Shown: positions 62-40,383 of the stretch, piece after piece
Layout: every line of letters begins with the position of its first letter
Numbering within the stretch: the stretch's first letter is position 1
Virus record (IMG/VR): IMGVR_UViG_3300025769_000090
Span: 1 to 64,000 of that record
From: a virus
DNA: 64,000 nucleotides
Reading direction: 5' to 3' (one strand)
The notes under the pieces: generated by a model
Database searches by the model: none
What the model was told of the DNA's origin: nothing
Seen by the model: only the letters and a program-made list of their open reading frames with translations
Position numbers and translations under genes: made by a program

Positions 62-1798
62 ATGCAAAAAGGAGCAGCGTACTGGATGGATCTTCATCAC
101 TTCAATGATGAGGATCCATTCTTTTTGGCACAAGTCCAAAGAGGAATCACTAACTTTGTAAAAATCCTAACAGGAAAAGACATTCCTGTAGAATATGCTA
201 CATCAGGTGACTCAATGACTGATGGGGAAACTGTTTATATTGCTTCAAATATAAAAGAAGATACAATAGATTATACAGTTGGGTTAGCTCTCCATGAAGC
301 TTCCCATGTTCTTTTAACGGATTTTAATTATCTTAATAAAGAAAAAGGGACTGTGTTAAAAAAGGTACATAATGTTCCTGAAGAAGATCACGATAATGTA
401 TTTACCTTAATTAATTTTGTTGAAGATAAACGCATAGATGATTATGTTTACAAATCAGCTCCTGGATACCAATTTTACTATGAAGAATTATATAATAAAT
501 CTTTTTACTGTCCTATAGTAGATGAAAATCTTCAAAAAGATATATTTGTTATACCCACTTGGGATGCATACTTCTTTAGAATAATTAATATATTCAATCG
601 TAATTCGGATCTTGACGCCTTACCTGGGTTAAGAGAGGTATTCGATTTAATAGATATTAAAAACATTAATAGATTAAAATCTACCCGCGATAGTGTAGAG
701 GTAGCTATCAAAATTTATAATATAATTAAGCCCTATATTCAGACAGAAGATGAAGAAGAAGGTGGGGAAGATCAATTAACAAATCAAGAATATAAAACTC
801 GAGATAGAGTAGAACGTCAAAAGAATTTTATAGACTCAAAGTATAGAAAAAAACGAGTCCATAAAAATGTCAAAAACGAAATCCAAAAACTGGCTAATAC
901 TAAAACTAGTATTACAGACTATAAAATCAATAACAATTCAAGTGTTACTACATTAGTAACCAAAAGTTGGAAAGATTATTTTTGTTCTCCTGTTAAGAAG
1001 CATTTAAAGGATGTAGATGAAGGGATTAATATGGGTAAAAGGCTCTTAAAGCAACTAAAAGTTAGAAATATATCTAAACAAGATATTTTTGAAAACCTTA
1101 AAAAAGGGAAATTAGATGTAAAAAAGATTTATAGTGCTCCTTATAATAAAAATATCTTTAATAGGGTTGAAAAAGAAGATTATAAATATACTTTCCTCCA
1201 CATTTCATTAGATCTAAGTGGTAGTATGAGAGGACCCAAATTAAGTAAAACCATAAAAACAGCAGTTGCTATATCGTATGCTGCTTGTTACTTGAAAAAC
1301 TTTGACGTTGAAGTTTCACTCAGAGGAACTTATACTGCGGCGGGTCAGAATAGAGGTTCAGAAAAACCCGTGTTGGCTTATATTTTTAATTCTAAAACCC
1401 ACTCTGCTAAAGAGCTAAATAGATTTGGCTCTCTAAAAACATCAGGTATGACCCCAGAGGGTATATGTCTTGACCTAATCGACTTACCTGCTCCAAATTA
1501 CTTTACAGAAGTTTATTTATTAAATATTTCAGATGGACTACCCAATATTAATAATATGAAATATAATTTTGGGACCGCTATAAACCATACTAAAAAAGTA
1601 GTTAGTTCTTATAAAAAAGAAGGAATAGGAGTATTAAGTTATTTCATACATGACACATGGGATAAAGGTCAAAAAGGAGAAGACTCGTTTAAAAAAATGT
1701 ATGGAAAAACTGCTAAATTTATTGATGTAGAAAACACATCTCAAGTAGCTAAAACCATAAATAACCTACTATTAAATAATACTATTAAGGTTTTTTAA
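62..1798 (+). CDS. HExxH metallopeptidase-like N-terminal domain plus C-terminal VWA domain (CobT-like / MoxR-associated type)
   Basis: GLALHEASHV followed by NFVEDKRID; MIDAS motif SLDLSGSM, GMTPEG and NISDGLP. Confidence 0.8.
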   Translation: MQKGAAYWMDLHHFNDEDPFFLAQVQRGITNFVKILTGKDIPVEYATSGDSMTDGETVYIASNIKEDTIDYTVGLALHEASHVLLTDFNYLNKEKGTVLKKVHNVPEEDHDNVFTLINFVEDKRIDDYVYKSAPGYQFYYEELYNKSFYCPIVDENLQKDIFVIPTWDAYFFRIINIFNRNSDLDALPGLREVFDLIDIKNINRLKSTRDSVEVAIKIYNIIKPYIQTEDEEEGGEDQLTNQEYKTRDRVERQKNFIDSKYRKKRVHKNVKNEIQKLANTKTSITDYKINNNSSVTTLVTKSWKDYFCSPVKKHLKDVDEGINMGKRLLKQLKVRNISKQDIFENLKKGKLDVKKIYSAPYNKNIFNRVEKEDYKYTFLHISLDLSGSMRGPKLSKTIKTAVAISYAACYLKNFDVEVSLRGTYTAAGQNRGSEKPVLAYIFNSKTHSAKELNRFGSLKTSGMTPEGICLDLIDLPAPNYFTEVYLLNISDGLPNINNMKYNFGTAINHTKKVVSSYKKEGIGVLSYFIHDTWDKGQKGEDSFKKMYGKTAKFIDVENTSQVAKTINNLLLNNTIKVF

Positions 1799-2007: not shown

Positions 2008-2014
2008 TATTTAT
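2008..2014 (+). promoter_or_regulatory. Putative late promoter core TATTTAT upstream of the envelope cassette
   Basis: Same core sits in most short intergenic spacers before structural genes. Confidence 0.45.
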
Positions 2015-2066: not shown

Positions 2067-2354
2067 ATGGCAAAAGAATTAAATGAAGATACTGGCTTTC
2101 AAGTTAGTATAAAAACCCTAGCAGGAATAGGGGCGGCGATAGCGACCGTAGTTAGTATGTGGTTTGCTCTTCAAGCTGATATAGCTGAAGCAAAAGAATT
2201 GCCTGCTCCCCCAGCTCCCGAAATTACAAGAATGGAGTTTGACATGAAGGACCAACTAGTGCGTCAAACAATTATGTCAACACAATCAGACGTAACTGAG
2301 ATTAAAGATCAATTAATACGTCTTGAGGATAAGATAGATGATCTAAAAGATTAA
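2067..2354 (+). CDS. Single-TM membrane protein with coiled-coil C-terminus
   Basis: Hydrophobic LAGIGAAIATVVSMWFAL; Pro linker; heptad tail VTEIKDQLIRLEDKIDDLK. Confidence 0.7.
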   Translation: MAKELNEDTGFQVSIKTLAGIGAAIATVVSMWFALQADIAEAKELPAPPAPEITRMEFDMKDQLVRQTIMSTQSDVTEIKDQLIRLEDKIDDLKD

Positions 2355-2355
2355 T

Positions 2356-2724
2356 ATGAAATATTTAATTTCAGTATTATTATTCTTATTTATTAGCACT
2401 AATGCTAGTAAACCCCCATTATTAGAAGAAAAAACCCCCATATGTGGGGATAATATATGCGTTGTACAGTTTAACGCAGCATTTAATTCAGCAAATGAAG
2501 TAACTTGGTTAGGTGATTTAACAGACTGTGATGTTAATACTGTTGACATTATGGTTGATCCTAGTTTACCCCAAGATTATAAAATTGTTGTTGTACCCAC
2601 AATCCTTATTTTAGATGAAGGAGAAGAAGTAGCGAGGTTTCAGGCCAACATTATGATGACTATGGAGGCAACTCGTGAAGAGGTGCAAGAATCTATAGAT
2701 AACATCATAATGAGCAAATTTTAA
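2356..2724 (+). CDS. Exported thioredoxin-fold protein lacking CXXC
   Basis: Signal peptide; VVQFNAAF...VDIMVDPSLPQDYKIVVVPTILILDEGEEVARF matches the Trx pattern including the cis-Pro VPT. Confidence 0.7.
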   Translation: MKYLISVLLFLFISTNASKPPLLEEKTPICGDNICVVQFNAAFNSANEVTWLGDLTDCDVNTVDIMVDPSLPQDYKIVVVPTILILDEGEEVARFQANIMMTMEATREEVQESIDNIIMSKF

Positions 2725-5700
2725 TGAAACATTTTTTAACCTCTCTTTTATTTTTTATTGGATTAGTAGGGTTGGCTCAGCCAACCTACTTAGATCTCTC
2801 TATTCAATTAGATGAATACCCAAGTGAAACATCTTGGATGCTTACACAAGGTAATGATACCCTTGCTTATGTTCCCTTTAACACATATCCTGAAGGAATC
2901 TTAGATAGTGCTTTAATCGAAGAAACTCTTTATTTAGAACCAGGAATTGAATATAAATTTTATCTATTTGATGAATTTGGTGATGGGAATTGTTGTGGAT
3001 TTGGCAATGGGTGGGTATCAGCTGAAAATGATTGTCAAGGAATTATATTTGAAGAATATAACTTTGGTGGTTCTGCTATAGATTTTCAGTTTGTATTAGA
3101 ACCATGTGCCCCCCAAGTCCCCGTTGCTGAGGTTTTATTTAGAGTAAACTTAGCTAATGCTCCTCCTGGCATAGAAACCCCAGGCGTATTAGGTAGCTGG
3201 AATGGGTGGCAGGTAATCCCAATGACTTATGACGAAAACGATGAATGGTTTTTAGAAGTTGAAGTCCCTTTAGGAAACCATTTATGGAAATTTGCAAATT
3301 TTAATAACCCTGACCAACAAGAACTCCCATTAGGTGTTGGAGCTGGTTCTTGTTTTTTATTTGATGGTAATGGATATGTAAATAGAACTTTAAATATAAC
3401 CAGCGAAGAAGAAATAACCCTCCCCCCTTATTGCTGGGAGTCGTGTCTTCCCTGTGGAGCCATACCTGGATGTACAGATTTTAATGCTATTAATTGGAAT
3501 CCTTGGGCTAATTTTGATGATAATTCTTGTATTTCTCAAACCACAGAATGTGGTCCTGGAGAAACTACCATTGAAATAATAGTAACCCCTGATAACTTTG
3601 GTGGTGAAATTAGCTGGAAATTATTTAATGACTTTGGTGAAGTAGCAGCTGTAAATCCTGGTGAGTACGGAGGTTCACCCCCGGGTATTCCTATTTCTAC
3701 TTTTTTATGTGTACCTACTGATGTATCATATGATTTAGTTACTTTTGATACTTATGGCGATGGGGTATGTGGTTCATGCTTTGGGGGAACAGTAATAGGT
3801 AATGTTCAAATTTTAGATTGTGAAGGCACAGAATTATATAATTTGCAAGATGAATTCCCTGATGGTAATTTTGGGTATGATACCGTATCTGAACAGTTTA
3901 TTCCAACCCAGTGTGGTGGGGTAGTAGAGATTGAAGGGTGCACCGATTTCAATTATGTGGAATTTAACCCTGAAGCTACCATAGATGATGGAAGTTGTTT
4001 TACTGAAAGAATTTATGGTTGTTTAGATGAAACACAATTTAATTATAACCCAGAAGCTAATACACAAGATATAATAGAAAGTTGTGTATTTAACTTAACT
4101 ATTAAAGATGGTGTTGGTGATGGTTGGTTTGGTAGCTGGTTAGGAATTTGGCAATTTGGGTATAATTCTCCACAATACCAAATGGGTCCTAACGATGGTA
4201 TTGAAGAGTCGTTTACTCTTACTTTAGATGCCACTCAGCCGGCTTATATTTACTTCTTTGTAACCCCCCAATCCATAGGAACAGCCCAACAATGTGGGTT
4301 TACTTTAACTAATTTAGAAGGAGAGATAATGATTGATGTCCCCTTCTTTAACATAATCCCTTTCCTAAATGAAAGTGGTTGGTATGCTTATGAAATAAAC
4401 CTTAATTGTGGTAACAATTGTATTCCCTTTATAGAAGGATGCCTAGATGTTGAAGCTTTTAATTATCACCCTTATGCCAATACTGAAGACGGATCTTGTT
4501 ACTATGCTCCAGGTTGTACTAGCGCGGGTTATGTAGAATATTATACTCAAGGATTTGAAGCCGATTTTGATAATGGAGGTTGTCAAACATTAGCAATTTT
4601 TGGGTGCACTGATCCTGATGCATTGAACTATGATGAAAATGCTAATGTAGATAATGAAACTTGTATCCCTAAAGTATTTGGGTGTACTAATGAATTAGCA
4701 TTTAATTATGATCCTTTAGCCAATACTGATGATAATTCTTGTATTCCTATTGTAGAGGGTTGTACTAACCCTAATGCTCTAAATTATAACCCAATAGCTA
4801 ATACTGAAGATTTCAGTTGTATATTACCAATTTATGGTTGTACCGATCCTGAGGCATTTAATTTTAACCCTGATGCTAATGTAGATGATCAATCATGCGT
4901 AGCAGTAATATTCGGTTGTACTGATGAAACTGCTTATAATTTTAACCCATTTGCTAATACAAACGTAGGGTGTATTTCTATAGTATATGGATGTACAAAC
5001 CAATTTGCCTTTAATTTCAACCCATCAGCTAACATAGATGATGGTTCTTGTGAAAGTATGATTTATGGATGTACTGATGAGAGTGCATTTAATTATAACC
5101 CATTTGCTAACACAAATGTAGGATGTGAGTCATTTGTTGAAGGTTGTACTGATGTAGAAGCTATTAACTATAACCCTCAAGCCAACACTGACGATGGTTC
5201 TTGTGAACCAATCGTATTTGGTTGTTTAATTCCGACAGCATTTAATTTTGATTCTGAAGCCAATACTAATAATGGATCCTGTATAGATGTTATATTTGGG
5301 TGTTTAGACCCTACAGCTTTTAACTACGACGAATTAGCTAATACAGATAATGGTTCATGCGAACCTGTAATAGAAGGTTGTATGGATCCAGATGCTCTTA
5401 ATTTTAACCCATCAGCTAATGTAAATGATTTTGATTGTATTGAAGCAATTTATGGATGTACAGATGAGACAGCTATTAACTACAATGAATTAGCAAACGT
5501 AGATAATGATACTTGTATACCAAGAGTTGAGGGATGTATGAACCCAGAAGCTCTAAACTTTAACCCTGATGCTAACGTAGATGATGGAAGTTGTATATTA
5601 CCAATTTATGGGTGTACTGATGAAACTGCTTTAAATTATGATGCAGACGCCAATGTAGATAATGATTCGTGTATAGAAATAGTTGAAGGCTGTACTAACC

Positions 5701-6392
5701 CAGAAGCCTTAAATTATAATGAATTGGCTAATGTAGATGACTTTAGCTGTATACTTCCAATTTATGGTTGTACTGATCCATATGCTTTTAACTATAATGA
5801 ATTAGCAAACATAGATAATGATTCATGTGAAGATGTAGTAGAAGGATGTACTGACCCAACAGCATTTAACTATAATCCTGAAGCTAATACTGAAGATTTT
5901 AGTTGTGAGCCATTTATTTACGGTTGTACTGACCCTGAAGCTGCTAACTATGATGAATTAGCTAATACAGATAATGGTACTTGTGAAACTGTATATGCCG
6001 AATGTGCTGATCATGTTATAGAAGCATATAATGTATTAGATTTGGAAGCTGAGTGTTTTGCATGGGTAATTGATGTTAGCCCAAGTTGTTGTAGTAGTGG
6101 GTGGTCTTATGGGTGTCAGGAATTATATAATTATTGTGAAGATAACACAGTTACTTCTTTAGAAGATTTTAGTGAAACTCAAATACTTGTATTCCCTAAC
6201 CCGACAAGAGATCGCGTAAATATCGCAAGTAACTTGCAGATAAACGCAGTACTATATAATTATATAGGACAGCCCGTACTAAGGGAGACAAACGTAAATC
6301 AGTTGGATTTAAGTAGGCTTGAGGCAGGTATGTATAACCTAGTTTTAACTTATAATGATCTCCAATTTACTAAAAAAATTATTAAGCAATGA
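2724..6392 (+). CDS. Secreted Cys-rich repeat protein with CBM48-like domain and C-terminal T9SS (type A) sorting domain
   Basis: Signal peptide ending LA-Q; VLGSWNGW...W...WKF CBM48-like segment; 23 GCTDxxAxNYxPxANxDDGSC repeats; C-terminus VFPNPT...LDLSRLEAGMYNLVL...TKKIIKQ. Confidence 0.85.
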   Translation: MKHFLTSLLFFIGLVGLAQPTYLDLSIQLDEYPSETSWMLTQGNDTLAYVPFNTYPEGILDSALIEETLYLEPGIEYKFYLFDEFGDGNCCGFGNGWVSAENDCQGIIFEEYNFGGSAIDFQFVLEPCAPQVPVAEVLFRVNLANAPPGIETPGVLGSWNGWQVIPMTYDENDEWFLEVEVPLGNHLWKFANFNNPDQQELPLGVGAGSCFLFDGNGYVNRTLNITSEEEITLPPYCWESCLPCGAIPGCTDFNAINWNPWANFDDNSCISQTTECGPGETTIEIIVTPDNFGGEISWKLFNDFGEVAAVNPGEYGGSPPGIPISTFLCVPTDVSYDLVTFDTYGDGVCGSCFGGTVIGNVQILDCEGTELYNLQDEFPDGNFGYDTVSEQFIPTQCGGVVEIEGCTDFNYVEFNPEATIDDGSCFTERIYGCLDETQFNYNPEANTQDIIESCVFNLTIKDGVGDGWFGSWLGIWQFGYNSPQYQMGPNDGIEESFTLTLDATQPAYIYFFVTPQSIGTAQQCGFTLTNLEGEIMIDVPFFNIIPFLNESGWYAYEINLNCGNNCIPFIEGCLDVEAFNYHPYANTEDGSCYYAPGCTSAGYVEYYTQGFEADFDNGGCQTLAIFGCTDPDALNYDENANVDNETCIPKVFGCTNELAFNYDPLANTDDNSCIPIVEGCTNPNALNYNPIANTEDFSCILPIYGCTDPEAFNFNPDANVDDQSCVAVIFGCTDETAYNFNPFANTNVGCISIVYGCTNQFAFNFNPSANIDDGSCESMIYGCTDESAFNYNPFANTNVGCESFVEGCTDVEAINYNPQANTDDGSCEPIVFGCLIPTAFNFDSEANTNNGSCIDVIFGCLDPTAFNYDELANTDNGSCEPVIEGCMDPDALNFNPSANVNDFDCIEAIYGCTDETAINYNELANVDNDTCIPRVEGCMNPEALNFNPDANVDDGSCILPIYGCTDETALNYDADANVDNDSCIEIVEGCTNPEALNYNELANVDDFSCILPIYGCTDPYAFNYNELANIDNDSCEDVVEGCTDPTAFNYNPEANTEDFSCEPFIYGCTDPEAANYDELANTDNGTCETVYAECADHVIEAYNVLDLEAECFAWVIDVSPSCCSSGWSYGCQELYNYCEDNTVTSLEDFSETQILVFPNPTRDRVNIASNLQINAVLYNYIGQPVLRETNVNQLDLSRLEAGMYNLVLTYNDLQFTKKIIKQ
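4437..5984 (+). repeat. Coding tandem repeat, 20 consecutive ~26-aa (~78 nt) GCTD...C units
   Basis: Counted from the translation; three more dispersed units lie upstream in the same gene. Confidence 0.9.
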
Positions 6393-7423
6393 AAAAATTA
6401 ATTACCCTAATATTAACTCTAGCTTGTTTTATACCTGCTCAAGCTCAGTTTTTACAAAAACAACTTAAGTTTGCTACTTTCTACACAGCAGTTACGGGAA
6501 ATAATTCATTAGCTGATATTAGTTTATACTCTATAAATCCTACTACTGGTTTATTAGAAGAAGAAATTATAGAAACTCCTTTTGATTATACTTTAGCTTT
6601 TGGAGTTAGGAAAATTGCCCGTTTAGATTATGAAAATAGGAAAAATGTATTTTATAATGGCACCGAATCCTCAGTTTCAGATGCAGCTACAGTAGGTAAT
6701 GTAGAAGGTTTAGAATATTTATTTGAATTCGATTATAAAAGACAACAAGGTAGTAAATTTGTAGATCAACAACATTTTTTAAGATATGTTCATGATCATT
6801 GGATTGTAAAAACAGAATACGTCCAAGATGGGTTTGCTGATTTAAGGTATTTTGAAGCCTCCCAACGTTATAGATATAATTTTAATGAAAAGTTTTCACT
6901 TAACGCTGGTTTAGTACAACGTTTTTCTGAACCTTATGGATTTGATCCTTTAGATGGATTAACAGAACCCGAATTTAGTTTAATAGCCTTAGAGCAAGGT
7001 TATACTGCCAATATAGGAGAAGGAACCTGGTCTATAGATAATACTACAATAGCTGAAAATAGTGACGTATGGAGGTTAGTTGTACTTCCTGAGATATTAA
7101 GTGAATATTCTGATCAAGAAAAATCTCAACTATCTAATCAATGGAATCACTCATTAGTATTAGGGTATGATTATTATCATTATACTAAAACTTTTTGGTT
7201 TCACTCTTGGGCCAGTGTATTACCTCTCCATGTAAGTGCTAAAAGCGAGTACTCATACTCAAATTTTATTGATGGTAATACTTGGTTTGACTATACTGGT
7301 GGGTTAATTTTAGGATGGCAAGTAAATAAAAGATTAGGTATTTTTTCCGAGGGAAAATATCATAAGTATTGGAATCGTGTATGGCATGATTTTTCAATAG
7401 GATTTAACTATAGAATATTATAA
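6389..7423 (+). CDS. Putative outer-membrane beta-barrel protein
   Basis: Signal peptide AQA-Q; aromatic-rich amphipathic strands; C-terminal beta-signal-like FSIGFNYRIL. Confidence 0.65.
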   Translation: MKKLITLILTLACFIPAQAQFLQKQLKFATFYTAVTGNNSLADISLYSINPTTGLLEEEIIETPFDYTLAFGVRKIARLDYENRKNVFYNGTESSVSDAATVGNVEGLEYLFEFDYKRQQGSKFVDQQHFLRYVHDHWIVKTEYVQDGFADLRYFEASQRYRYNFNEKFSLNAGLVQRFSEPYGFDPLDGLTEPEFSLIALEQGYTANIGEGTWSIDNTTIAENSDVWRLVVLPEILSEYSDQEKSQLSNQWNHSLVLGYDYYHYTKTFWFHSWASVLPLHVSAKSEYSYSNFIDGNTWFDYTGGLILGWQVNKRLGIFSEGKYHKYWNRVWHDFSIGFNYRIL

Positions 7424-7435
7424 AAACATAACAAC

Positions 7436-7654
7436 ATGAAATTTACAGAAATTTTTAAAGAAAAAAATGACATCAACGAAAAATCAGTAGTTGGTTTCGC
7501 TGCATTTGCTATTATGGTATTATTTGCTGTAACTGACTTAGCAACAGGTTACTTCGGTAAAGATTTAGTAATTAATGAAGCAATTTATAACTCATTTGTA
7601 TTTGTAACTCTAGGTAGCTTTGGAATAGCTGGTTTAGAGAAATTCGCAAAATAA
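7436..7654 (+). CDS. Small two-TM membrane protein (holin-like topology)
   Basis: Two hydrophobic helices VVGFAAFAIMVLFAV and FVFVTLGSFGIAGL in 72 aa. Confidence 0.6.
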   Translation: MKFTEIFKEKNDINEKSVVGFAAFAIMVLFAVTDLATGYFGKDLVINEAIYNSFVFVTLGSFGIAGLEKFAK

Positions 7655-8031
7655 TGTACGAATATCACGCCGTAGTAAATAGAGTAGTTGATGGTGACAC
7701 AATTGATGTCACCATTGATTTAGGATTTCATGCCCATATAAAAACTCGTGTAAGAATGGAAGGTATGAATGCTCCTGAATCGAGAACAAGAGATTTAGAA
7801 GAGAAAGAACGCGGCCTTGCAGCTAAAGCTAGACTGAAGGAAATTATAGAATATAATAATAACCACTGTATATTAAAGGTATCAGGGCTTGGAAAATATG
7901 GAAGGGCGTTAGCCACAGTATTTGTAGATAAATTATCTCCGGTAGCCAAAGAAGGGATAACTTTAGTTGATGTGAATAAACAATTAATTAAAGAAGGACA
8001 CGCTGTTGAATATGACGGTGGAAAGCGTTGA
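7654..8031 (+). CDS. Staphylococcal nuclease (SNase/thermonuclease)-like protein
   Basis: RVVDGDTIDV, RVRMEGMNAPE, GKYGRALA, NKQLIKEGHA motifs. Confidence 0.9.
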   Translation: MYEYHAVVNRVVDGDTIDVTIDLGFHAHIKTRVRMEGMNAPESRTRDLEEKERGLAAKARLKEIIEYNNNHCILKVSGLGKYGRALATVFVDKLSPVAKEGITLVDVNKQLIKEGHAVEYDGGKR

Positions 8032-8049: not shown

Positions 8050-8057
8050 TATTTATA
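8050..8057 (+). promoter_or_regulatory. Putative late promoter TATTTATA
   Basis: Intergenic, 15 nt before ATG 8073; recurrent motif. Confidence 0.55.
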
Positions 8058-39697: not shown

Positions 39698-40003
39698 ATG
39701 AAATTATGGAAATGGATAGTGGGACTATTTGCAGCTATTGGTGGTGCTGCTGCGATAGCTTCCACTCAAAAGAAAAAAGCCCACGAAAAAAATGTTAAAG
39801 AAAACCAAAAACAGGTCAAGCAGGTACAAGCTAAAACTAAACAAGTTCAGCAACAAAAAGCTGAGACTAAAAAGGCAATTACTACTCAAAAGAAAAAAGT
39901 AACTACTGCTAAAAAGCAAGTTAAAAATACAAGTAGTGCTAAAAAGACTGCAAAAAGTTTTGAACAAAAATACCGCAAGCCAGGTAGACCAAAAAAGAAA
40001 TAA
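39698..40003 (+). CDS. Membrane-anchored basic coiled-coil protein (possible lysis accessory)
   Basis: N-terminal TM followed by a Lys/Gln-rich helix. Confidence 0.6.
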   Translation: MKLWKWIVGLFAAIGGAAAIASTQKKKAHEKNVKENQKQVKQVQAKTKQVQQQKAETKKAITTQKKKVTTAKKQVKNTSSAKKTAKSFEQKYRKPGRPKKK

Positions 40004-40383
40004 TGAAAAATATATTAGTAACTTTACTCTTAGGGTTATCTAACATATGTTATTCACAAGATACTCTTCGAATTCCCGCTACGGAACTTGAAGAGTTCTT
40101 CTTGGCTCTAGATACCCTTGAAATCCAAGACTCAGCTAAAGCAATATTAATTACTGAACTTGAGCGAACTATTAAACTATATGAACTCCTCGCTGAACAA
40201 GACAGTTTAATTATAAAATTTAAAGATCAAGAAATATCTTTACTAAACGACCAGATTCAACTTCATTTAGATTACATAAATGAAACTGATAAGTGGTATA
40301 ATAAACCCTCAGTAGGAGTTACAGCTGGTGTGTTAGGTACTATATTTTTAATACAAGCTTTAGATTATACGCTGCCTGACTGA
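40003..40383 (+). CDS. Exported coiled-coil protein with C-terminal TM (possible spanin-like)
   Basis: Signal peptide ending YS-Q; coiled coil; WY..P..GVTAGVLGTIFLI. Confidence 0.55.
   Translation: MKNILVTLLLGLSNICYSQDTLRIPATELEEFFLALDTLEIQDSAKAILITELERTIKLYELLAEQDSLIIKFKDQEISLLNDQIQLHLDYINETDKWYNKPSVGVTAGVLGTIFLIQALDYTLPD

Follow-up and report, generated by a model that had tools for sequence, protein, structure and literature searches.

Introduction

In Flavobacterium johnsoniae the gene of SprB, a large repetitive type B cargo of the secretion system of type IX (T9SS), is reportedly followed by a barrel gene of the PorP/SprF family, namely sprF. The phage locus described here shares with this pair a large repetitive T9SS cargo gene directly followed by one that encodes an outer-membrane barrel (about 300–350 aa), but its cargo, protein C, carries a C-terminal sorting domain (CTD) of type A and not of type B, and its barrel, protein D, is unrelated to PorP/SprF and also occurs without cargo. 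T9SS cargos of type A have been reported on bioinformatic evidence for the ‘Cryophage’, with cargo genes that vary between phage variants (Bellas et al. 2020, Nat Commun, PMC7468147), a precedent that the original prediction for our locus had been unaware of. Both phage genomes encode type A T9SS-tagged proteins and presumably hijack the host T9SS. Whereas the Cryophage cargos are enzymes (endoglucanase, GH39) and a PA14 protein encoded by single flexible genes, C is a Cys-repeat stalk protein whose gene invariably comes with a conserved set of three envelope genes that surround it (A, B and D, in the following the trio), across unrelated marine phage types. For uncharacterised phage proteins of Porphyromonas gingivalis, signal peptides exposing an N-terminal Gln have been described and taken as an adaptation to the Sec/SPase I of Bacteroidota and a potential outer-membrane modification (Matrishin et al. 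2023, PMC10367356). These proteins, for which a T9SS tag was not reported, stem from prophages of an oral pathogen, whereas here lytic-type marine phages carry a T9SS tag within a multi-gene module.

The third system for comparison are the two-component spanins such as lambda Rz/Rz1 and T4 PseT.3/PseT.2, and phages of Bacteroidota are among the spanin-less phages listed (Kongari et al. 2018, PMC6139136). Spanins and, in relatives of our phage, the trio both neighbour endolysin and holin in the lysis cassette, and both combine an N-in bitopic inner-membrane subunit having a periplasmic coiled coil, which in A is a predicted helix, with an outer-membrane subunit, together covering the whole envelope. 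However, they share no sequence similarity, the trio has a third, periplasmic subunit with a thioredoxin fold (B), and the periplasmic segment of A (about 55 residues, no Cys) falls far short of the length seen in Rz-type i-spanins. Since D is predicted to be a barrel of 344 aa whose leader is of the SPase I type and has no lipobox, and not a small lipoprotein, we rejected it as an o-spanin, and the analogy is limited to position and topology.

Results and Discussion

Source and gene layout

The window, the whole stretch of 64,000 nucleotides that was analysed, belongs to a T4-type phage contig on which baseplate, terminase, portal and capsid genes accompany the cassette, showing that the element is phage-borne as predicted. 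Among isolates a Flavobacterium phage comes closest, its capsid being 54.7% identical. Together with the CTD and the Bacteroidetes Q-rule described below this points to Bacteroidota as hosts of this uncultured marine phage, and the presence of a host T9SS is deduced from the CTD of C and the Q-rule. Six plus-strand ORFs (A–F, Table 1) were confirmed within 2067–8031 where the original prediction had placed them, and they are indeed tightly linked, the junctions A/B, B/C, C/D, D/E and E/F amounting to +1, −1, −4, +12 and −1 nt. Five of the products appear to be targeted to the envelope, also in agreement with the prediction.

Table 1: Features of the cassette (positions in the window).
Feature	Position	Strand	Description
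TATTTAT promoter-like motif	2008..2014	+	59 nt upstream of A
A	2067..2354	+	95 aa, bitopic inner-membrane protein, trio member
B	2356..2724	+	122 aa, exported thioredoxin-fold protein without CxxC, trio member
C	2724..6392	+	1222 aa, T9SS type A cargo by architecture
C, signal peptide ending LA↓Q	2724..2780	+	Bacteroidetes Q-rule
C, CBM48/CBM20-like beta-sandwich	3120..3434	+	residues ~133–237
C, Cys-repeat array, two-Cys ‘GCTDxxAxNYxxxAxxDDGSC’ units, period 26 residues	4437..5999	+	residues 572–1092
C, five-Cys module C[FY]AWVIxVxxxCC...W...C...YxYC	6045..6143	+	residues 1108–1140
C, C-terminal T9SS sorting domain of type A (PNPT ... GxY ... KKIIKQ)	6189..6389	+	residues 1156–1222
D	6389..7423	+	344 aa, predicted outer-membrane beta-barrel, trio member
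E	7436..7654	+	72 aa, two hydrophobic segments, holin-sized
F	7654..8031	+	125 aa, SNase-type nuclease

The contig is linear and rated about 50% complete, and the cassette begins 2 kb from its end. The left junction (a vWA gene followed by A) is common to at least five and the right junction (F followed by h1) to at least 13 independently assembled contigs, showing that the cassette is not a chimera, and in the loci L002 and L082 it is placed between portal and capsid genes. Over 150 viral contigs from independent assemblies have A–D side by side, so this arrangement is not due to chance. The synteny survey thus bore out a co-occurrence of the genes in numerous other phages, and they show no decay. 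Purifying selection acts on all genes of the cassette, with dN/dS values of 0.10–0.20 for A, B, D and E, and in C on the five-Cys module and the CTD (values below). The AT skew of the cassette is unlike that of the rest of the window.

The predicted TATTTAT motif is present upstream of A, and the unit therefore sits behind a promoter-like motif of the phage itself. From the 28 copies in the window 12 are intergenic, although intergenic DNA makes up only about 2–3% of the sequence, and the intergenic stretches that precede structural genes show a strong enrichment of the motif. Most copies are located 22–36 nt upstream of start codons, among them those of structural genes such as the portal gene (43847). 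Just beyond F, at 8050, the next copy follows, so that promoter-like motifs bracket the unit, and a late timing of its expression appears probable.

Protein C, a T9SS cargo by its architecture

The CTD assigned to C by the original prediction was verified by profile search, which gave 40.8 bits against TIGR04183 (cut-off 23; 46.3 bits in the genome-level search) and 36.7 bits against PF18962 (cut-off 27), both matches covering residues 1156–1222 of 1222. TIGR04183 also matched in 29 of 31 C orthologues, the domain aligns with the solved CTD 8glj_D, and its dN/dS is 0.44. As cargo must reach the periplasm first, a Sec signal peptide is expected of a T9SS substrate, and a heuristic signal-peptide test indeed revealed a hydrophobic leader (MKHFLTSLLFFIGLVGLA↓Q). 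It obeys the Q-rule (PMC5837995), a small residue followed by Q, as do all 39 leader-bearing orthologues of C and 55/55 orthologues of D, compared to 18/41 leader-bearing controls. Judged from its sequence, C thus has the full architecture of a type A cargo with Sec leader, cargo body and C-terminal CTD.

The cargo body starts with a beta-sandwich head including a CBM48/20-like module, followed by a Cys-repeat stalk and the conserved Cys module that precedes the CTD. The head module resembles the AMPK-beta CBM structures 1z0n and 4yef (TM 0.72–0.76 on target, rmsd about 4 Å, 98 columns, 19–21% identity) as well as the CBM20 region of CGTase; the match to Pfam AMPK1_CBM is weak, and the atlas leads likewise point to CBM. 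There are 69 Cys in C. Of its 20 ‘GCTDxxAxNY’ units, 18 belong to the regular 26-residue array and one lies outside it at residue 249. No Pfam family covers the array. This type of repeat is restricted to C and its family; no virion protein has it, and a search of 81 Flavobacteriaceae genomes gave no match in 78. Within C, conservation is highest in the five-Cys module with invariant C, W, CC, W, C, Y and C (dN/dS 0.27 versus 1.2 in the linker after it). No enzyme domain was observed in C.

The envelope proteins A, B and D

A consists of an N-in transmembrane segment at residues ~13–31, a Pro-rich ELPxPxxPE linker and an amphipathic or coiled-coil helix of about 40 residues. It is the most conserved gene of the cassette (mean column identity 74%, dN/dS 0.10) and its family comprises more than 8000 clusters at 90% identity, many of them from Tara Oceans, but has no Pfam domain, no PDB relative and no homology to known families.

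B carries a Sec leader. B alone reached 18.4 bits against Pfam thioredoxin, which is under the cut-off of 23.5, but a profile built from 28 orthologues matched 107 PDB chains that are all thioredoxins (best 2vim_A, E 6.9e-7), and the cis-Pro loop VVVPT is invariant, supporting the predicted thioredoxin fold. As FN-x-x-N replaces CxxC in all 28 orthologues, with a HMMER gap at WCGPC, B has a redox-inactive thioredoxin fold and is not a thioredoxin. Its dN/dS is 0.20. The match to PF09673 is weak (E 0.019) and is regarded as a lead only, with no homology claimed. A periplasmic thioredoxin fold lacking CxxC is also found in conjugative pilus assembly, in proteins of the F-plasmid TraF type. B resembles these in the loss of the redox motif, the periplasmic location and the possible link to an envelope-spanning assembly, with a similarity below any threshold.

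The AF2 model of D (pLDDT 72.8, pTM 0.68) shows an outer-membrane barrel of 12–14 strands with a conserved helical insert at residues ~181–250. Structural matches include KdgM (Z 12.5), Tsx (12.4), EstA (12.0), NanC (11.7) and autotransporter barrels, and the leading Foldseek and VIA matches are essentially all outer-membrane barrels, with no specific subfamily resolved. With its signal peptide (AQA↓Q) and the closed barrel of the model, D is an outer-membrane beta-barrel as far as can be judged from modelling, in line with the original prediction. The dN/dS of D is 0.10. The D family includes 418 representative clusters, has no Pfam family and is absent from cultured genomes, being found in only 10 MAG contigs of scattered taxonomy. 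A membership in PorP/SprF (PF11751) was rejected, as there was no match in D (E ≤ 0.1) or in 10 remote members (E ≤ 0.01) and hhalign against 12 genuine PorP/SprF aligned the signal peptide only (probability 23%).

Distribution of trio, cargo and lysis genes

The trio exists independently of the cargo. In a remote lineage of 52 non-redundant loci, whose D is 27–29% identical to that of the window, A and B are present in 51 loci and a CTD or Cys-repeat protein in none of them. Instead, an M15 endolysin (PF08291 at 59–64 bits and a match to 1lbu) was found in 44/52 and a phrog_3427 holin in 15/52; one or the other lies within 2 kb in 51/52, the gap having a median of 540 nt. The endolysin and B are separated by small ORFs, which encode basic soluble peptides without lipobox. 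The trio is thus a very widespread three-gene envelope set, located in other phages directly next to the lysis genes, although genes next to lysis cassettes, for example lambda bor and stx, need not be lysis genes themselves.

Among cargo-bearing loci a holin from one of two unrelated families is directly adjacent in 16/47, a location in the lysis cassette applies to 16–20/47, and the order C-D-A-B-M15-holin is common. In the window neither an endolysin nor a known holin family was found beside the module, nor anywhere on the 75-kb half-genome, and the link of its trio to lysis is therefore borrowed from relatives. Near relatives encode a CTD or Cys-repeat protein in all 40 A-seeded loci with full flanks. 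Conversely, all C-seeded loci whose flanks are long enough contain D, A and B, C never occurs without the trio and it is usually located directly upstream of D; the trio could serve C in these phages. The module behaves as a mobile, self-contained unit. Three cyclic gene orders of it exist, its carriers include T4-type phages as well as phages with T7-type primase/helicase, and the genes flanking it are otherwise unrelated between phages. A search of 50,697 GenBank records gave no cultured phage with A, C or D, and our literature search found no paper on the A-B-D trio.

Possible function of the module

We consider it reasonably probable that a T9SS cargo and a lysis-linked envelope trio travel together in this phage lineage. 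We infer the T9SS dependence, the complex formed by the trio, its lysis role and the binding target of C as follows. A in the inner membrane, B in the periplasm and D in the outer membrane would form an envelope-spanning complex that may act at the final lysis step by disrupting the outer membrane, and in Bacteroidota hosts it would thus correspond functionally to spanins. The cargo gene C would have been inserted between B and D and be co-transcribed from the TATTTAT motif. Its product is expected to be exported by Sec, cut at A↓Q by signal peptidase I and folded in the periplasm with about 34 disulfides, before the host T9SS might recognise the type A CTD, translocate the protein and remove the tag. 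C would then end up on the cell surface or be released, probably as a long stalked, lectin-like adhesin presenting the N-terminal beta-sandwich and CBM-like domains at its tip.

The original prediction, which is partly supported by our data, had regarded the six genes as a single T9SS-dependent cassette for remodelling the surface of the infected cell. In such a machine A, B and D would fold, shuttle and anchor C, with B as periplasmic holdase for the 69-Cys protein, D as a private outer-membrane anchor like SprF for SprB and A as inner-membrane tether, serving adhesion, exclusion or receptor masking; these and the earlier proposals of anti-grazing and T9SS jamming are guesses. The constant association of C with the trio, the 40/40 near relatives with a CTD or Cys-repeat protein, the 4-nt overlap of C with D downstream of it and the conserved Cys module preceding the CTD, a conceivable site of docking, agree with this idea, but the trio without cargo beside endolysin and holin in 52/52 loci of another lineage, the lack of a relationship between D and PorP/SprF by Pfam or hhalign and the missing redox cysteines of B make it unlikely. 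We also rate as rather improbable that the trio, together with E, regulates lysis or excludes superinfecting phages as an envelope sensor, antiholin or immunity set with a role like T4 rI/rIII or imm/sp, C being an independent moron. A is small and bitopic with a short periplasmic domain and thus antiholin-like, E has the size of a holin or antiholin, and the trio adjoins holins of two families; yet its layout across three compartments and its near-universal endolysin adjacency suit the role of an effector more than that of an accessory regulator, and no homology to a known antiholin or exclusion protein was found.

That C binds algal or bacterial glucans on the cell surface and D, as a specific channel of the KdgM/NanC/Tsx type, imports oligosaccharides or nucleosides to fuel the infection seems very unlikely. 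The channels KdgM, NanC and Tsx are among the matches of D (Z 11.7–12.5) and C has its CBM48/20-like module, but the barrel matches reflect strand number only, with autotransporter, OMPLA and LpxR barrels scoring equally, A, B and the position in the lysis cassette are left unexplained, and late expression just before lysis would leave little time for a metabolic gain. The proximity of the cassette to the end of an incomplete contig and its deviating AT skew could finally indicate a chimera with joined host DNA, or C could be a virion fibre whose ‘CTD’ is a structural beta-sandwich. An artefact of either kind has a negligible probability: the shared junctions effectively refute it by synteny, the position between portal and capsid genes in L002 and L082 and the near absence of the D family from cellular sequences argue against it as well, and C, D and B have Sec leaders that are absent from virion proteins, which also lack the Cys repeat.

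Proteins E and F

The two hydrophobic segments of E were read by eye, and a crude 19-residue hydropathy scan flagged the first one only. E is a frequent companion of the trio (47/89 loci) and adjoins a PF05105/phrog_199 holin in loci of the order C-D-A-B-E-HOL. Searches of Pfam and PHROG gave no match to a holin or any other family, and E is possibly a holin or antiholin. F matches PF00565 (SNase) with 37.6 bits (cut-off 21) and the phrog_452 endonuclease with 1e-34. As its sequence has no signal peptide, F is a cytoplasmic phage nuclease and not an envelope protein, and it is linked to the module in 24/89 loci, all from close relatives. Its inclusion in the cassette by the original prediction is therefore not upheld, and F is a lineage-specific neighbour, an unrelated nuclease that lies outside the module.

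Integrity and conservation of the cassette

The six reading frames were recovered at exactly the coordinates of the original prediction, with junctions of +1, −1, −4, +12 and −1 nt between consecutive genes. Searches seeded with D and with C gave 100 viral loci. An assembly chimera is excluded, as the left junction (A preceded by a 57-aa gene and the vWA gene) is found in at least 5 and the right junction (F, h1 to h9, baseplate wedge) in at least 13 independently assembled contigs. The genes also show no decay, since the orthologues are full length, with median dN/dS values of 0.10 (A), 0.20 (B), 0.10 (D), 0.11 (E) and 0.13 (F). In two related viral loci (L002 and L082) the cassette is located between portal and capsid genes.

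When the ORFs lying up to 9 kb from D were clustered (89 loci), the recurring families were D (89), C (80), A (78), B (76), E (47) and F (24), and no other family was present in more than 20 of these loci. The module occurs as A-B-C-D, C-D-A-B and D-A-B-C, three orders that convert into each other by cyclic permutation. Beyond close relatives the remaining genes of the window recur almost nowhere near the module, so that F, a staphylococcal nuclease homologue (PF00565, phrog_452) without a signal peptide, is a neighbour in one lineage only. In the more distant loci the module is flanked by genes of another type of phage, with a T7-type primase/helicase and virion proteins of 2400–2900 aa. E has 72 aa and two hydrophobic segments by eye, of which a crude hydropathy scan flagged the first only.

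Several further neighbours were observed (see the table for coordinates). The conserved left neighbour in close relatives has 578 aa and carries a DxSGS motif of vWA type (phrog_1576); a homologue is also located near the module in locus L036. A DUF5675 protein (PF18925, phrog_1501) of about 156 aa, for which a sequence search of the PDB gave no relative, is encoded in 15 loci, either by the gene just before C or a few genes after the trio A, B and D. In many podovirus-like contigs the trio or its holin is immediately preceded by a giant ORF, which matches phrog_14770, phrog_616 or phrog_22602 (virion structural protein).

Coordinates of the cassette genes and of further features (L-numbers are viral or MAG loci carrying relatives of the module)
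Feature	Location	Remark
A	window 2067-2354 (+)	inner-membrane coiled coil
B	window 2356-2724 (+)	thioredoxin fold
C	window 2724-6392 (+)	predicted T9SS cargo
D	window 6389-7423 (+)	outer-membrane barrel
E	window 7436-7654 (+)	holin-sized
F	window 7654-8031 (+)	nuclease homologue
vWA-type protein	window 62-1798	578 aa
TATTTAT(A) sites	window 43847, 45742, 50733, 51449, 24518, 15210, 8050, 40392, 62151, others	upstream of structural genes
101-aa protein	window 39698-40003	N-terminal TM
126-aa protein	window 40003-40383	signal peptide MKNILVTLLLGLSNICYSQ...
DUF5675 protein	L084:6892-7362	also in 14 further loci
Giant ORF upstream of D	L029:89-7429, L053:12-8690, L061:69-7520, L209-L272	2300-3200 aa
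Cys-repeat protein with short tail	L158:12481-14682, L178:10641-12506, L179:11014-13791, L186:1719-4487, L204:11159-13462	and similar loci
Type B CTD protein	L003:17198-20356, L010:15239-17296, L020:15212-17299, L015:11451-14774 (- strand)

Phage, host and expression

The source contig is linear, has 75,239 bp and is rated as about 50% complete, the window being its first 64 kb. Every large ORF of the window is located on the + strand, and a T4-type baseplate wedge, the large terminase, the portal and the major head protein were identified by PHROGs; tRNA genes were not found in the window. Judged by the capsid protein, Flavobacterium phage vB_FspM_immuto is the nearest phage on deposit (54.7% identity), and comparison of the region and of C, D and A with 50,697 GenBank phage records (megablast, tblastn) gave no match. 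The leaders of C and D terminate in A/Q, and a small residue followed by Gln is present in all 39 C and all 55 D orthologues with a hydrophobic leader, compared to 18 of 41 leader-bearing control ORFs. This pattern is the Bacteroidetes Q-rule of signal peptidase I substrates (PMC5837995), which has previously been noted in Porphyromonas phage genes (PMC10367356). Taken together, the Q-rule leaders, the type A T9SS C-terminal sorting domain (CTD) of C and the affinity to a Flavobacterium phage point to a Bacteroidota host. CTD and Q-rule can also mark the host phylum of uncultured phages. In a search of 185,579 species genomes the D family was found on ten contigs only; all of them belong to MAGs, whose taxonomy is scattered (Nitrosopelagicus, Rickettsiales, Woesearchaeota, Flavobacteriales and others), which is the pattern expected from mis-binned phage contigs. 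The MAGs that hold the trio-bearing phage contigs of loci L102-L111 carry the labels Nitrosopelagicus, Parvibaculum, Maricaulis, Rickettsiales and Woesearchaeota, and such placements are probably binning errors and could mislead host assignment.

The motif TATTTAT shows strong intergenic enrichment in the window, as 12 of its 28 copies fall within the 2–3% of the sequence that is intergenic, where it is typically located 22–36 nt 5' of start codons, including that of the portal gene. As one copy lies 59 nt before A and the next just beyond F, the cassette looks like one phage-controlled transcription unit. The original prediction had regarded TATTTAT as a mark of late genes, which agrees with its position before structural genes, and TATTTAT(A) is a candidate late-promoter motif of this phage group. 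The T4 late consensus TATAAATA has only 4 copies, none of them intergenic. Matches to sigma-70 promoters in the window were no more numerous than in shuffled sequences (31 vs 33.7 ± 5.8), and the 7 terminator-like matches (3.0 ± 2.0 in shuffles) gave nothing interpretable.

The envelope trio and its link to lysis genes

The proteins of the trio are addressed to the inner membrane (A), the periplasm (B) and the outer membrane (D), and they are conserved jointly under purifying selection across unrelated phages. A, the most conserved gene of the set, encodes 95 aa with an N-in bitopic topology, a Pro-rich linker and a helix of about 40 residues; its profile gave nothing significant against the PDB. 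B has a thioredoxin fold, and its family profile matches thioredoxins only in the PDB (best E 7e-7), although all orthologues carry FN-x-x-N in place of CxxC; the cis-Pro motif VVVPT is invariant. D was modelled as an outer-membrane barrel of 12–14 strands (pLDDT 72.8) with structural matches to KdgM, Tsx, NanC and autotransporter barrels tying at Z 11–12.5. An assignment of D to PorP/SprF was rejected, as neither D nor ten remote relatives showed a Pfam match and as hhalign against twelve genuine PorP/SprF proteins aligned the signal peptide alone. The trio is extremely common: the A family comprises at least 8000 clusters, with many members from Tara Oceans, and is present on at least 576 IMG/VR contigs, while the D family gives 418 representatives when clustered at 50% identity. 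Within the limited literature covered we found no paper describing it.

In diverged loci lysis genes are the most frequent extra neighbours. A PF05105/phrog_199 holin directly follows E, a phrog_3427 holin (E 7e-22) directly precedes C or follows B, and among 47 diverged non-redundant loci a holin is immediately adjoining in 16 and at most three genes away in 20. A recurrent ORF of 149–156 aa between B and the phrog_3427 holin is a Peptidase_M15_3 endolysin-type enzyme (PF08291, 59–64 bits at a cut-off of 23.2) matching the zinc D-Ala-D-Ala carboxypeptidase 1lbu.

Among near relatives (40 A-seeded loci with at least 5 kb on both sides) no trio without cargo was found, a CTD or Cys-repeat protein being present in 40 of 40. 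A remote search seeded with a D relative 27–29% identical to that of the window gave 155 viral contigs and 52 non-redundant loci. Here A and B accompany D in 51 of 52 loci and a CTD or Cys-repeat protein was found in none of the 52, with an M15 endolysin in 44, the phrog_3427 holin in 15 and a lysis gene within 2 kb in 51 (median gap 540 nt). The remote D proteins obey the Q-rule in 70 of 73 cases; the two remote representatives P0122 and P0060 had no loci in IMG/VR. Thus, the trio is an independent unit associated with lysis cassettes, and C is an addition present in some lineages, which in the window is inserted between B and D.

In the window phage neither an endolysin nor a holin could be recognised beside the module or on the 75-kb fragment. 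As the contig represents about half a genome, the missing endolysin families (PF01510, PF00959, PF13539, PF01464, PF08291) say nothing on their absence from the phage, and in T4-type genomes the lysis genes are dispersed, so that their lack beside the module is not unusual (PMC6139136). A pair of adjacent 101-aa and 126-aa proteins without family matches, encoded after a thymidylate-kinase-like gene, could be another membrane/periplasm pair, possibly related to lysis.

The predicted cargo protein C

The predicted CTD of C was confirmed at residues 1156–1222 of 1222 by TIGR04183 (40.8 bits, cut-off 23) and PF18962 (36.7 bits, cut-off 27), and this tail aligns to the solved CTD 8glj_D via the motifs PNPT, G-x-Y and KIIKQ. 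C contains 69 cysteines. The unit 'GCTDxxAxNY' occurs 20 times, in 18 cases as part of a regular array with a period of 26 residues; the repeat matches no Pfam or named family, and an atlas search with it gave unnamed viral clusters only. Residues 1–575 form a string of beta-sandwich domains (AlphaFold model, pLDDT 77), of which the region around 133–237 resembles the CBM48 glycogen-binding module of AMPK-beta (TM 0.72–0.76 on target, rmsd about 4 Å, 98 columns) and, in structure comparison of the model, also the CBM20 region of cyclodextrin glycosyltransferases. This modelled similarity is a lead at fold level and no proof of sugar binding. The order of a Sec leader, a distal beta-sandwich and CBM-like head, a disulfide-rich stalk, a conserved Cys module and the CTD is that of a putative C-terminally anchored surface adhesin exported by T9SS, with a cleavable CTD and a rigid stalk. 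Constraint is uneven along C, as the dN/dS is 0.27 in the Cys module before the CTD, 0.44 in the CTD and 1.2 in the linker between them.

Two other readings of C were rejected. A virion fibre does not fit the Sec leaders and the lack of the repeat in all other ORFs, and recent capture of a host gene does not fit a search of 81 Flavobacteriaceae genomes, 78 of which gave no match to the repeat region. By its sequence signals C is a credible phage-encoded T9SS cargo. Type A T9SS cargo (an endoglucanase, a GH39 enzyme and a PA14 protein) has been reported for 'Cryophage', described by its authors as a unique occurrence (PMC7468147), so that the idea of phage-encoded T9SS cargo is not new.

Possible function of trio and cargo

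The original prediction of a six-gene T9SS cassette holds for C as credible cargo; the set itself is rather a cargo inserted into a lysis-linked envelope trio, the remainder being the holin-sized E and the unrelated nuclease F. We propose that A, B and D may assemble into a complex across the whole envelope, which would break through the outer membrane as the final step of lysis. In many phages the trio occupies the usual genomic position of spanins. The likeness to spanins is one of position and topology only, as sequence similarity is absent, D is a barrel unlike the spanin lipoprotein and A has a short periplasmic segment without cysteines; small ORFs between B and the endolysin were rejected as o-spanins since they have no lipobox. 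In the spanin survey of Kongari et al. no spanin was found in 91 of 677 phages, including the Bacteroidota-host phages Bacteroides B124-14 and Croceibacter P2559S/Y (PMC6139136), and an alternative outer-membrane device is therefore expected in this host group. There is a substantial chance, though less than even, that the trio is a novel three-component system for disrupting the outer membrane, which would replace spanins in a very large group of ocean phages of Bacteroidota, with C as a functionally coupled partner. With the trio at the usual spanin position, the breach of the outer membrane by Bacteroidota phages, a long-standing gap, becomes directly testable.

As C was never seen without the trio in the loci examined, some functional coupling is likely. 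C would reach the outer face of the same membrane as D late in infection, where it may dock on D via the conserved Cys module and may mark, weaken or mask the cell surface at lysis; possible purposes include adhesion, docking on D and the masking of receptors on cells undergoing lysis. One phage gene with a Q-rule leader and a T9SS CTD would indicate a phage loading its own cargo into T9SS. This secretion system also powers gliding motility and polysaccharide degradation. In the sea, algal polysaccharides are degraded chiefly by Flavobacteriia and other Bacteroidota, whose blooms are controlled by phage lysis.

Two variants of the cargo were observed among the relatives. In lineages with the order giant ORF-D-A-B the Cys-repeat protein has a shorter tail (...ITDLLGRxxKExKNxLLFYIYxDGTVExKxIK) without PNPT, which is missed by the CTD model used here; this tail could represent a T9SS tag that is shortened or has diverged, or a different signal. 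Close relatives of the window phage possess another Cys-rich protein, this one with a T9SS sorting domain of type B (TIGR04131 / PF13585 CHU_C), adjoining which no PorP/SprF partner was seen in these relatives. In locus L003 the genes before it encode a Peptidase_M43 protein of 669 aa and enzymes of 7-deazaguanine synthesis (queC, queD-like (PTPS) and radical-SAM genes).
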